A model generated the notes under the pieces. It did not search any database. It was not told the DNA's origin and saw only the letters and a list, made by a program, of their open reading frames with translations. Shown piece by piece: positions 59,024-63,467 of a stretch of DNA of 64,000 bases. The stretch is from an uncultured Verrucomicrobiae bacterium (GTDB lineage Bacteria > Verrucomicrobiota > Verrucomicrobiia > Chthoniobacterales > UBA10450): the NCBI GenBank assembly GCA_963834385.1, contig CAWIBO010000002.1, positions 672,001 through 736,000 on the forward strand, written 5' to 3'. Positions within the stretch are counted from its first letter, which is position 1, and each line of letters starts with the position of its first letter. A program made the position numbers and the translations under genes.

Positions 59024-59674
59024 ATGACCCCCGTATTTCCCGCCGCCCAGACCCGTGTTGCGCCCGAGGTCCTGCTGGACGGCCGACTGGCGCTTTTCCA
59101 TGAAAAAGAGCGTTGGCTGGCGGTGGCCGACCTACATTACGGGTTTGAACTGAGTCAGCGGGCAGCCGGCTGGCTCACCCCGGTCTGGGGCATGGCCTCG
59201 GTGGAGACCCAGCTCGATTCTCTCCTGGAAACATTTGTCCCGGAACGGCTTATCATTGTCGGCGACCTGGTGCACGATCGCACCGCTCTCCCGGACGTCT
59301 GCCGTCTGCTCGAGCATTTGCGGCAGAAAACCGAGGTGATCGTCGTGGCCGGCAATCACGACCGCCACCTGGGCGGCGCGGTTCCGCTGGTCTCGCACTA
59401 CGAAACACCCGGGTTCCATTTTCACCATGGGCATTGCGCGGCCGCGGCCAACGGCCGGACGCGCATCATCGGGCATCATCACCCGGCCGCCAGCCTGAGC
59501 GACGGGGCGGGGCTGCGCTTGAAGTTGCCGGCGTTTGTCCAGGAAGGCGATTGCTGGATCCTGCCCGCCTTTTCGCCCTGGGCGGCCGGGGCGGCCTGGA
59601 AACAGACGGAGGAAAGCCGCGTCTGGCTCTGCTCGCCCCGCCGGATCCTGGAAGTATCGAGAAAAGCCGCCTAG
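59024..59674 (+). CDS. Metallophosphoesterase (PdeM-like)
   Basis: ADLHYG, GDLVH, GNHD, HHGH, GHHHP, LPAFS. Confidence 0.82.
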
Positions 59675-60129
59675 GCGGCCGCGGTCGAGCCCAGCTCCTC
59701 GGTGCATTCCGGGCAGCGTTTCGCCTTGATCGGAATCGACTTGGTGCAGGCCGGACAATCCTTCACCACCGCCGGTGCGTTCGGCTTCGGTTTCTTCATC
59801 CGGTTAATGCCGCGTACCAGGAGAAAAATGGCGAAGGCCACGATGATGAAATTGATCACGAGGGTGAGGAAGTTCCCGTAGTTCCAGGTGATGGCCCCGA
59901 GCTTTTCCGCCTCTGCCGGGGTGGAAAACGAACCGCCCCCGGGGGCGTCCTTCAAGACAATGAACATGTTGGAGAAATCGAGTCCGCCCGTGAGCAGGCC
60001 AATCACCGGCGTGATGAGATCTTTGACGAGCGAGGAAACAATGCCGCCGAAGGCGGCGCCAATGATGACACCAACCGCCAGATCAAGGGCGTTGCCCTTG
60101 ATGGCGAATTCCTTGAATTCTTTCCACAT
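59671..60129 (-). CDS. mscL: Large-conductance mechanosensitive channel with C-terminal zinc ribbon
   Basis: [24 protein letters not shown]; tail CPAC...RCPEC. Confidence 0.95.
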
Positions 60130-60143
60130 AACAAATCAGTGAC

Positions 60144-63100
60144 TCAATCCGTCACGATATTCACAAGCTTTTTCGGGACGACCACGACCTTGCGGGCGGT
60201 TTTGCCCTTGCCCTCAACCCATTCGCGCACCTTGGGGTTGGCCAGCGCGGCCTGCCGGTAATCTTCCTCCCCGACGGCCAGCGGCAGCCGGATGCGGTCA
60301 CGCAGCTTGCCATTCACCTGCAGGATGACCTCGACCTCATCCTCGACCAGGCAGGCGGGATCAAACTCCGGCCAGCGCTGATCGGTGATGGCGCCCGCAT
60401 CGCCGAAGCGTTCGGCCAGTCGTTCCCAAAGGTCGGAGGTGAGATGCGGAGCGAAGGGATTCAGAAGAACCAGGAGCGTGCGCAGGGAGCCAACCGGCCG
60501 CTTCTCGGCGCCCGTAAAGGCGTTTACGAACTGCATCATCTGCGCAATGGCGGTGTTAAAGGAAAGGGTCTCGATATCCTCCGTCACCTTTTTGATCGTG
60601 GCGTGCACCACCCGGCGCTGCGCCGGCTCCGGTGAACCTTCGTCCAAAGCGTCGGAAAGCACCCAGTCACCGGCCTGGTTCTCCTCCATGAAAAGCCGCC
60701 AGACCCGGGCAAGGAAGCGCGAGACGCCTTCCACCCCCTTCATGCTCCAGGGCTTCATCTGTTCGAGCGGCCCCATGAACATCTCGTAGCAGCGAAAGGC
60801 ATCGGCGCCGTGTTCGCGCACGACATCATCGGGATCGACCACGTTGCCCCAGCGCTTCGACATCTTGCGATTGTCCTCGCCCAGGATCATGCCCTGGTTG
60901 ACCAGCCGCTGGAACGGTTCCGCCTTCGAGAGATGGCCGAGATCGTAGAGCACCTTGTGCCAGAACCGGGCATAGAGCAGGTGCAAAACCGCGTGCTCCG
61001 TCCCGCCAATGTAAAGATCCACTCCGGCCGCCCCCTCGCCCCCCATCCAGTAGCGTTCGGCTTCGACGCCCACGAATCGGTCCTCGTTTCGCGGATCGCA
61101 AAAGCGCAGGTAATACCAGCACGATCCCGCCCATTGCGGCATGGTGTTGGTTTCCCGGGTCGCCTTCTCGGAATGGCGGATCCAGTCACGGGCTCGCGCC
61201 AGCGGCGGTTCGCCCGAGCCGGTGGGCTTGAAATCGTCTAGGGGCGGCGGCGAGAGCGGCAGATCGTCCGCCGGAAGGGCGCGGTGCCTCCCCTCTTCCC
61301 AGATGATCGGGAACGGTTCGCCCCAGTAACGCTGCCGGGAAAAAAGCCAGTCGCGCAGCTTGTAACGGACGTCGCGCCGCCCCCGGCCCTGCTCTTCCAG
61401 CCACCCGATGATCTTTTGTTGCGCCTCCGCCGTCGGCAGCCCGTCGATCAGCGGCGAATTGATCGCGACCCCGTCGCCGCTAAATACGGAGCCCGGGTTT
61501 TCAACGGAGCCCGGGTTTTCAACCCGGTCTTCACGGCTTGAAAAGCCGTGCTCCTAAAGTCGCGCTCCCAAACCGGTACGTCCTTGCCGGACAATCCGGC
61601 TTTCTCCGGGTTCATCGCGATGTACCTGCTTGAGAAAATCGTAATGTTCCTGCGACCGCACCAGCCGATCAAAATATTCCTCCTGCCAAAGCGATCCGCT
61701 TTGACCGATCCTCTTATTGATCTCCAGGGCCGAATGCCGCTTCCAGCTGTGAACCACGGCCGGAAGCGTCTCGTTTTCATGCAGGCGAACCAGCACATGC
61801 ACGTGATTGGGCATCACGCAGAACGCATGCAATTCGTAACGCTGGCCCTCAAAAAACCGTAACGCCTCGACAACGATCTGCGCACATTCCGGGCGGGCCA
61901 GCACGCAGCTGCCTGCGCCCGCGTCCAGCCACTCATCCAGCCGCGCGCCAAAACGCTCGTAGAACTCGTTCTCCTGTTCGGCCGTCCATGGCTCCGGGTG
62001 GCTTGCCAGCCAGCGTTCACGATCCTCCCGCAGCTCCGCGAGCTTCGGTTGCGGCAGGCTGTCGGCCAGACGCCAGGTGAGGAAGTAGAGGCTTTGGGCC
62101 TGCTGCCAATGCGGAAGGTTTCGTCGATGGATCTCGATCTCTTCGCGTGGATCGAGGAACCCCCTTTCGGAGCCCGGGTTTTCAACCCGGTCCTCGTCTT
62201 CACGGCTTGAAAAGCCGTGCTCCTTAGAAACCCCGTGCTCCGCAACGACCCGACGAATCGGAAGATCGAATTGACACGCGAATTCGAAATCCCGCTCGTC
62301 GTGCGCGGGCACGGCCATAATGGCCCCGGTGCCGTAACCCATCAAAACGTAATCCGCGATCCAGATCGGAATCTTCTCCTGGTTCACCGGGTTGATCGCG
62401 CAGGCCCCGAGGAAAACCCCGCTCTTTTCCTTCGCCAGATCGGTCCGCTCGAGATCGGATTTCGCGGCCACCTCAGCCCGATACCGGGCGACATCGCCCC
62501 GGCATTCCGCGGAGGTCAGTTGTTCCACCAGGGGATGTTCCGGCGCGAGCACCAGATACGTGGCCCCGTAGATCGTGTCGGGACGGGTGGTGAAAACCTC
62601 GATGAACTGATCAGGGTCCAGGGTGCGGGCTTCAGACCTTTCCCCTGAACCCTGGACACTGAACCCGGAAAACCTGATGACTGCGCCTTCACTCCGGCCA
62701 ATCCAGTTCTGCTGCAGCAACTTGATCCCGGCCGGCCAATCGAGCGGCTCCAGCTCCTCCGCGAGGCGATCCCCATAGGCGGTGATCCGCAGCATCCATT
62801 GCCGCATCGGCCGGCGCACCACCGGAAATCCACCCACCTCGCTTTTGCCGTCGATCACCTCCTCGTTGGCGAGGACGGTCCCGAGCTCCGGGCACCAGTT
62901 CACCGGCACATCCGCGACATAGGCGAGGCGCACCCCGTCCGGATCATCCCCGTCGTAAGTGTCGATTGGCTCGGCCTTGCGCGTGGCCGGGTTGAACCAG
63001 GAATGATAAAGCTGGAGAAAAATCCATTGCGTCCAACGATAAAAATCCGGCTCCGCCGTGCTGACCTCGCGGCTCCAGTCGTAGGAGAATCCCAGCCGCT

Positions 63101-63467
63101 TCAACTGGCCCTTGAACTTCGCAATGTTGGCCCGGGTGGTGATGGCCGGATGCTGCCCGGTCTTGATGGCATACTGCTCGGCCGGCAGGCCAAAGGCGTC
63201 CCAGCCCATCGGATGCAGGACGTTGAAACCGCGCATGCGTTTGTAGCGCGCCACGATGTCGGTCGCGGTGTAGCCTTCCGGATGCCCGACGTGAAGACCG
63301 GCGCCACTCGGATAAGGAAACATGTCGAGCACGTAATACTTCGGCCGGGTCGCGTCGAAACCCGGCTCCCCGGGATTGAGGGCGCGGAACGTTCCCTCCG
63401 CCTCCCAGCGCGCCTGCCAGCGCGCATCGATTTCGTCGAAAGGATAAGGTTTGCGGCGTTCGCTCAT
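60144..63467 (-). CDS. leuS: Leucine--tRNA ligase interrupted by an in-frame REP/RAYT insertion; single in-frame TAG at 61554-61556 as assembled
   Basis: [30 protein letters not shown], then after insert [30 protein letters not shown]; both halves are in the same frame (63467-61142 = 2325 nt). Confidence 0.95.
61487..61554. repeat. REP doublet (REPIN-like) plus 18-bp tandem duplication, downstream flank of RAYT
   Basis: CGGAGCCCGGGTTTTCAA x2 (61487-61522); GGAG-CCCGGGT-TTTCA-ACCCGG facing inverted CACGGCT-TGAAA-AGCCGTG-CTCC. Confidence 0.9.
61557..62160 (-). mobile_element. REP-associated tyrosine transposase (RAYT / Y1 HUH) domain embedded in leuS
   Basis: LPHW...YFLTWRL.DSLP, MPNHVH (HUH, ~61797-61805), [25 protein letters not shown] (catalytic Tyr) follows in the +1 frame after an extra base at ~61625. 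Confidence 0.9.
62168..62242. repeat. REP doublet (REPIN-like) plus half REP, upstream flank of RAYT
   Basis: 62168-62224 identical to 61505-61555 except a 6-bp spacer insertion (CTCGTC); extra half copy GAAACCCCGTGCTCCG at 62227-62242. Confidence 0.9.
62611..62677. repeat. Heptamer-based inverted repeat inserted in frame in leuS
   Basis: TCAGGGTCCAGGGT (62611-62624) vs ACCCTGGACACTGA (62649-62662), 13/14 complementary; units CCTGAAC/CCTGGAC/ACTGAAC. Confidence 0.65.

Follow-up and report, generated by a model that had tools for sequence, protein, structure and literature searches.

REP-associated tyrosine transposases (RAYTs) are held to be single-copy, free-standing genes, possibly domesticated, that tend repetitive extragenic palindromic (REP) sequences. 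In the REPtron, exemplified by TnpA-REP of E. coli (YafM, structure 4ER8), the enzyme combines an HUH motif with a tyrosine in a Y..NP helix. The same Y1 HUH fold, with like-oriented subterminal hairpins at both ends and no obvious target duplication, is found in the IS200/IS605 group (IS608 and ISDra2 TnpA), and IStrons, in which a group I intron is fused to IS605-type genes, splice at the RNA level by means of a ribozyme. The present analysis concerns a locus of an uncultured Verrucomicrobiae bacterium (GCA_963834385.1, contig CAWIBO010000002.1), lying in a stretch of 64,000 nucleotides that is called the window here (positions 672,001 to 736,000 of the contig). Within leuS, the gene of leucyl-tRNA synthetase (LeuRS), a RAYT-type transposase domain between two hairpin modules interrupts the editing domain. 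The unit is probably a self-contained Y1/HUH cassette that sits in a permissive surface loop of LeuRS and is translated as part of that enzyme. Comparison with other genomes points to a lifestyle that is widespread among RAYT-type transposases and has gone undescribed, of which this particular instance carries an assembly caveat.

According to the list of open reading frames (ORFs) and the reading of the frame itself, leuS occupies 60144-63467 of the minus strand, on which all features of the locus lie. Its 5' part (62241-63467) encodes the catalytic N-half and the editing (CP1) domain as far as position 147 of the 185 positions of the Pfam profile tRNA-synt_1_2. The left hairpin module (62168-62240) follows in the leuS frame; it folds as DNA with -24.4 kcal/mol (z -4.4) and is made up of a partial arm copy (62227-62241), hairpin 1 (62201-62219) and hairpin 2 (62174-62190). 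The transposase domain comes next, in the leuS frame from 62167 to 61626 and marked by LPHW, the HUH motif HVH (61797-61805) and WQEEYFDR, and its 3' end (61557-61625) holds the C-terminal helix in frame +1, with the tyrosine codon at 61622-61624. An in-frame TAG (61554-61556) closes a 637-residue open frame in the assembly. The right hairpin module (61488-61553; -24.7 kcal/mol, z -4.7) has the orientation and reading phase of the left one and contains hairpin 1 (61532-61550), hairpin 2 (61511-61527) and an extra half copy of 18 nucleotides (61488-61505). The 3' part of leuS (60144-61487) then provides the remainder of the editing domain, the catalytic C-half, the anticodon-binding domain and the stop codon. 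The order is thus hairpin module, about 200 codons of transposase, hairpin module and resumed LeuRS, and the whole cassette, from 62240 down to 61488, measures 753 nucleotides, a multiple of three. The two modules share an identical core of 29 nucleotides, with copies 669 nucleotides apart in direct orientation and in equal reading phase.

The transposase domain has no start, stop or ORF of its own and sits within leuS; reading the sequence by eye, no in-frame ATG, GTG or TTG was seen from the LeuRS part to LPHW. Y1_Tnp (Pfam, E 6e-10) is found in one and the same 637-residue frame as the LeuRS editing domain, and Pfam recovers tRNA-synt_1, the editing domain and the anticodon-binding domain on the two LeuRS parts. 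By alignment to LeuRS of Thermus thermophilus (1H3N), the 5' part ends at residue 362 and the 3' part begins at residue 379, which places the cassette between these residues in the editing domain. Both LeuRS halves are otherwise intact, with 62-78% identity to orthologues (62-73% for the 3' part against LeuRS of relatives). No second leuS was found in the 2.9-Mb genome (completeness 89.6%), where the other matches are paralogous synthetases of less than 30% identity; the initial annotation had raised the prospect of a dead copy beside an intact paralog, and that prospect is not borne out. Its placing of a RAYT-type HUH/Y1 domain of about 200 codons in the CP1 editing domain, without a start of its own at the 5' end, agrees with the Pfam match and with the profile match to 4ER8 given below. 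It had also taken the leuS frame to run through the cassette. Entry in frame, a length of 3n and the resumption of LeuRS uphold this, and the TAG at 61554-61556 and a shift near 61625 do not; in reading the transposase as one frame it had merged two, since the YIAMNP helix lies in frame +1.

By sequence and by structural modelling, the domain is a Y1 enzyme of RAYT-like type with an added helical hairpin, and its subfamily falls outside the NCBI equivalog cut-off. Its best family in NCBIfam is REP_Tyr_transpos (NF047646; 6e-17, 61.9 bits), and the IS200 family NF033573 follows with 26.7 bits, below its cut-off of 55. A search of the Protein Data Bank (PDB) with the single domain sequence from the window gave weak matches only and a profile was needed; the profile of eight homologues found 4ER8 as the best match (E 4.4e-6), with the HUH and Y..NP motifs aligned. 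Similarly, when the LeuRS-borne homologue L046 was modelled with AlphaFold (81 sequences, pLDDT 91.7), Foldseek matched the model to 4ER8 first (E 2.7e-7, TM 0.40/0.50) and then to ISDra2 and IS608 TnpA. HVH, within MPNHVHV, is invariant in two homologue alignments and aligns to PEHMHCI of 4ER8. The strict Y..NP pattern is kept in 54 of 56 embedded copies, and the remaining two keep the tyrosine in a variant motif. The likeness to the REPtron extends to the HUH motif, a Y..NP tyrosine that is out of frame as assembled, the best profile and fold match, the best family, the flanking hairpins and the presence of one full-length copy of the subfamily in the genome. Unlike the REPtron, however, the cassette is not free-standing: it lies in frame within an essential ORF, with neither start nor stop. 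It further differs in that it has no dispersed population of REPs or REPINs, that its flanking modules are direct and not inverted, that TAAG or TTAG and not the GTAG tag precedes the hairpin (read by eye), that it contains an extra helical hairpin of about 45 residues (residues 44-87 of the L046 model), and that its score stays under the NCBIfam cut-off.

The repeats of the hairpins exceed chance, as none of 100 shuffles gave any match. The hairpin 1 sequence of 19 nucleotides has two copies in the 2.9-Mb genome, both flanking the transposase of the cassette. Among relatives, a hairpin pattern of 23 nucleotides gave one match with two mismatches, in one of 40, and an exact-match scan of metagenome_contigs with a 27-nucleotide hairpin stretch gave 0 matches. 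The flanking hairpins are private to the cassette and are not genome-wide REPs, so that the dispersed REPs characteristic of RAYTs are missing here. The initial annotation had seen REP doublets on both sides of the domain; two hairpin modules do flank it, and no dispersed REP family accompanies them in the genome. The cassette bears a closer resemblance to an IS200-style element that is present once and bounded by two similar ends. Precise excision of the IS200/IS605 kind could also explain empty sites. In contrast to IS200/IS605 elements, on the other hand, the cassette is single-copy, has neither an ORF of its own nor tnpB, and is nearer to TnpA-REP in sequence and fold (61.9 against 26.7 bits). 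Elsewhere in the source genome, at C2:856377-856569, there is a cluster of hairpins that resembles hairpin 2 with 2-3 mismatches and may be another repeat family.

The arrangement recurs in other genomes and other host genes. Within the same family and order, relatives of the domain occur in 31 of 41 genomes, and 23 of the 83 matches listed lie in stop-free frames of at least 900 residues; the hosts read among these long frames are ValRS (L002, L003) and CarB (L007, L008, L011). Across GTDB genomes, 541 stretches encode relatives of the domain. The host survey covered the best 80 of these 541, of which 73 carry the HUH pattern, and 49 of the 73 loci lie in open frames of at least 400 residues, with hosts assigned by Pfam. 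CarB is the host at 10 of the 49 loci and an Eco57I-type restriction-modification protein at 9, followed by LeuRS and ValRS (5 each), PriA (3) and a CCA/poly(A) polymerase (2), with one locus each for MmeI, XseA, PdxA, HsdR, radical SAM, GNAT, adenosine deaminase, UDPGP and DUF1156; no host family was found at the other 6. In all five LeuRS hosts the editing-domain profile is broken at position 144-147, like that of the window.

Proteins give the same picture. In a set of 5.8 billion, the RAYT part matches 263 proteins at E <= 1e-10, among 711 candidates. By hand count, 57 of the 120 listed (the window included) combine the LeuRS editing domain with Y1_Tnp and have no ValRS C-terminal family, which is present in 7 of the 120. 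At least 44 of these 57 LeuRS::RAYT proteins have 1,000 residues or more and are uninterrupted, with the HUH motif between PAHD and KLRDW, which are 280-320 residues apart. One of the carriers is a cultured bacterium, Haloferula sargassicola NBRC 104335, whose LeuRS::RAYT protein has 1,108 residues and scores 953 bits for leuS_bact against a cut-off of 548. Some of these proteins have been given the name 'leucyl-tRNA synthetase/REP element-mobilizing transposase RayT' by the JGI pipeline. The initial annotation had proposed a search of other housekeeping genes for such inserts, and related cassettes do lie in frame in valS, carB, alaS and priA. In the source genome itself valS, carB and priA have no cassette, and alaS contains a second, shorter RAYT-like domain in frame, with the transposase parts in one frame. 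This alaS gene (C3:123581-126900) has the RAYT-like domain at about C3:124950-125560, between hairpin flanks that differ from those of the leuS cassette, as well as an in-frame palindromic insert at about C3:124440-124640 and frameshifts near C3:124737 and C3:126285.

In relatives, the same leuS loop was read at 28 of the 29 loci fetched (L014-L042, with L034 left out), including L016, L020 and L029 from the unpublished genomes G002, G014 and G007, and none of the 28 contains the transposase domain. In the 17 loops measured by strict pattern, 71-93 residues separate PAHD from KLRDW. At least two loops are occupied in another manner: L015 (G004) has a stretch of 204 nucleotides with a fold of -71 kcal/mol and L031 (G024) one of -29 kcal/mol, and both are palindromic, REPIN-like in-frame inserts with no transposase. 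The editing-domain loop of leuS is a soft spot for inserts. It had been described as a short variable loop by the initial annotation, and the range of lengths in 17 relatives and the palindromes in two agree with this; the proposed comparison of orthologs at the site yields an insert in 0 of 28 relatives' loops and the same loop filled in at least 44 proteins. The C-part of LeuRS of the source genome is 67-73% identical to that of same-family relatives with no cassette, against 56-61% to that of carriers. The RAYT part is 46-60% identical to the RAYTs of carriers, and its nearest relatives (up to 60% identity) are LeuRS-borne. Another leuS of the same order (G031:C8:61222-62697) has about 50 extra residues between positions 107 and 154 of the C-part query, in an open frame of 1,086 residues, at a different insertion site.

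The closest precedent for such loops is the occurrence of REPs in frame inside ORFs, tRNA synthetase genes included, which is described together with the Rickettsia palindromic elements (RPEs) in the available part of one paper (PMC3733652). In both cases palindromes stand in frame in functional ORFs, and relatives of the source organism hold such palindromes in the very same LeuRS loop; the RPEs and in-ORF REPs, however, are short and gene-less, whereas the leuS cassette is a whole unit with its transposase in frame. The part of that paper available makes no mention of a transposase inside an ORF (PMC3733652). More generally, the literature searched, with supplements outside the search, reports in-frame REP inserts and no transposase nested in frame in a host gene. 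If the cases set aside by Quentin et al., as far as the accessible part of their paper goes, held such fusions, this may be one reason why the class has gone unseen.

Tree and identity data suggest long residence with losses, remnants and occasional replacement. A quick tree built from 84 domains groups them by host gene: all 13 CarB-borne copies fall into a single clade with support 95, 6 of 7 ValRS-borne and 3 of 3 PriA-borne copies likewise cluster, and the LeuRS label needs three changes; host labels change 29 times in all against 52.5 in shuffles, none of 200 of which came as low. Host-gene clustering alone is not proof of site-faithful transfer, as kin share labels. Over the 44 LeuRS::RAYT proteins, RAYT and host identity are correlated (Pearson 0.72, with outliers), and neither this correlation nor the tree can separate old vertical descent from site-faithful transfer. 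A pair of proteins, P0061 and P0064, is more telling: their LeuRS parts are mostly 95-100% identical per block of 40 residues and their cassettes, between similar hairpin-coded flanks, only 48-68%, which indicates from the sequences that the cassette was probably replaced at the same site. Another pair, P0043 and P0044 (RAYT 100%, hosts 79%), was considered as a recent cassette transfer and rejected, as the two are identical from column 401 all the way to the C-terminus, which marks a chimera or recombinant.

Several points weigh against a passenger that is translated with LeuRS. The leuS frame is not open as assembled: the TAG stands directly before the right module, the YIAMNP helix with the catalytic tyrosine is shifted to frame +1 by a surplus base at 61625/61626, and translation could restart in frame after the TAG no earlier than the ATG at 61142, which lies behind the RDW..RQRYWG motif. 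The gene as assembled cannot yield full LeuRS. Two cancelling indels 68 nucleotides apart are, furthermore, an odd pattern for random error, and the single contig that lacks the stop has a depth of only 2 and comes from a run that may be the sample behind the assembly, with no contig of the four runs aligned covering the shift at 61625. The NF047646 score of 61.9 bits is under the RAYT cut-off of 80. As the hairpins have no dispersed copies, nothing in the genome shows the enzyme acting, and that this subfamily would cleave DNA is argued by analogy. Searches also gave no RNA or protein data for the organism or for any such fusion.

The two defects are nevertheless likely to be errors of sequencing or polishing and not features of the living gene, because alaS and xseA are frameshifted in the assembly as well. 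From 61557 to 61625 the leuS frame gives unrelated residues in place of the conserved helix; in homologues VR and YI are separated by 10 residues, a spacing that is restored here when one base is removed, and the tyrosine helix is in frame in all seven aligned relatives. As the two defects compensate each other in length, LeuRS resumes in frame. The contigs from four metagenome runs (X1-X4) that were aligned to 61300-62400 include a short-read contig of the soil run X2 (record 13; 61491-61568, differing at one other letter) with an additional base behind 61555. In that version the TAG disappears and frame +1 (the C-terminus of the transposase, ...VPVWERDF) is joined to the leuS frame (EHGFSS...). 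An exact-match scan of metagenome_contigs with a 28-nucleotide stretch beside the frameshift gave 0 matches. Two frameshifts in alaS and one in xseA bring the total to five breaks per roughly 16 kb checked, and valS, carB and priA are free of frameshifts, as is leuS in its native parts. The xseA gene (C3:279467-280769) has its apparent frameshift near C3:279970 at a GGG run, which is a further sign of indel errors. An error motif GCAGG, made by the alaS and leuS-cassette shifts, was rejected as a shared cause, since the xseA shift does not have it and GCAGG occurs 2.5 times per kb. A programmed +1 frameshift at CUU-UAG, like that of prfB, was likewise rejected, as the slip leads to a frame +1 stop at 61448 and not to LeuRS, and so was a split LeuRS, as no ATG, GTG or TTG occurs in frame from the TAG to 61142 and the C-terminal subunit would lack RDW..RQRYWG.

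It is unlikely, by comparison, that the defects are real, with a leuS allele dead or dying, a decayed transposase and either another, unassembled leuS or a consensus that represents a defective minority allele. The TAG and the frameshift are present in the assembly, the genome is only 89.6% complete, and two nearby compensating indels look like history more than noise; yet the 2.9 Mb hold no second leuS, the LeuRS halves are otherwise intact at 62-78% identity to orthologues, a contig of a close strain does not have the stop, further essential genes of the assembly are frameshifted, and a compensating deletion that creates a stop would not be selectable. In practical terms, the stop that seems to interrupt this essential gene of the window should probably be put down to an error of the assembly. 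A chimera in which the assembly stitched the cassette into leuS through repeats, a danger that the initial annotation had pointed out, is extremely improbable because independent contigs cross both junctions with at least 31 letters on each side: the left one is bridged by record 1 of X1 (62075-62326, two other letters) and the right one by record 21 of X3 (61381-61529). Although repeats do flank the insert and the assembly is error-prone, the hairpin repeat occurs nowhere else in the genome, and the same architecture is found in at least 44 other LeuRS proteins. X4 contains a contig in which just 207 letters separate 61371 from 62278; its two matched pieces are about 86% alike, and it is read as the empty site of another organism.

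Given the 44 intact LeuRS::RAYT proteins and the in-frame cassettes in valS, carB, alaS, priA and others, a translated passenger is the best reading of the leuS cassette, with translation and activity both suggested by sequence comparison. The initial annotation had proposed such a passenger in an essential gene, and the comparative data favour it even though the frame is broken in this assembly and translation is deduced. The cassette, with no promoter, start or stop, would obtain its expression from leuS, and transcription and translation within LeuRS would produce a synthetase enlarged by one domain to about 1,100 residues, from which nothing would be spliced out. Its location would also shield it, as only exact, frame-keeping removal would keep the essential leuS alive. 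If TnpA-REP and IS200/IS608 are a guide, the hairpins may be single-strand DNA sites that are bound and cut by the tyrosine enzyme, and such cutting would permit precise excision, exchange of cassettes and decay to hairpin-only remnants in the loop. An extension of this idea, that the cassettes are a distinct class of mobile element and a DNA-level counterpart of inteins, whose transposase is made only inside an essential host protein, still cuts its own hairpins and moves or is exchanged between the same loops across lineages in a site-faithful 'homing', is possible and is put forward tentatively because lineages cluster by host gene and a cassette was swapped in near-identical LeuRS. Like inteins with homing endonucleases, the cassettes would be selfish elements in frame in essential conserved genes (aminoacyl-tRNA synthetases, CarB, PriA), would use host-gene expression and would tolerate only precise removal. 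They differ from inteins in having no Hint domain, so that they presumably stay in the mature protein, in occupying a variable surface loop and not a conserved active-site motif, and in encoding a single-strand DNA transposase and not a double-strand homing nuclease.

Domestication would mean that the domain is no longer selfish and has become a working part of LeuRS and its other hosts, for example as a nucleic-acid-binding or regulatory module. RAYTs are generally held to be domesticated in the part of the literature available (10.1101/119735), and the kept catalytic motifs of the embedded copies, the identity of RAYTs that tracks that of their hosts (r 0.72, 44 proteins) and the single clade of CarB-borne copies could all be taken in this sense. 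It is an improbable account of the cassette all the same, given a patchy spread (0 of 28 relatives' leuS loops, with valS, carB and priA of the source genome empty), hosts that are unrelated enzymes and include restriction-modification genes, the replacement of a cassette in near-identical LeuRS and the retention of hairpin ends that a mere protein domain would not need. Removal of the cassette before the protein works, whether by splicing of RNA or protein or by DNA excision as a routine event in most cells, is very improbable. The cassette does occupy the niche of inteins and introns, and Y1 transposons of the IS200/IS605 kind excise precisely. The IStron is likewise an IS200/IS605-type element that inhabits genes without killing them; no ribozyme was found in the cassette region, however, and the frame is kept open instead. 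In 61000-62700 there is no Rfam family at threshold, only sub-threshold hairpin look-alikes, and no group I or II intron. All Pfam matches on the 637- and 469-residue frames belong to synthetase and Y1_Tnp families and none to a Hint or intein family, in agreement with the initial annotation, which had noted no Hint motifs. Moreover, a cassette that is removed from the RNA or DNA would have no need of the stop-free, in-phase frames seen in dozens of independent hosts, and both the assembly and the contigs show a filled site.

A passenger of this kind would have consequences beyond the window. In dozens of genomes a whole RAYT unit lies in frame in essential genes with no expression signals of its own. 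If such units are translated and active, they would represent a new strategy of persistence for DNA transposons, based on protection by location and on borrowed expression, and would supply aminoacyl-tRNA synthetases, CarB and DNA-repair proteins with large domain insertions by a natural route; in addition, a ready test case would be at hand, as one carrier is cultured. There is also a consequence for annotation, in that such genes are either split or go under the name 'class I tRNA ligase family protein', and have been dropped from surveys as fusions or errors. Directly downstream of leuS, an ORF on the same strand (59671-60129) resembles, by eye, the mechanosensitive channel MscL, with a C-terminal tail that contains two CPxC pairs.

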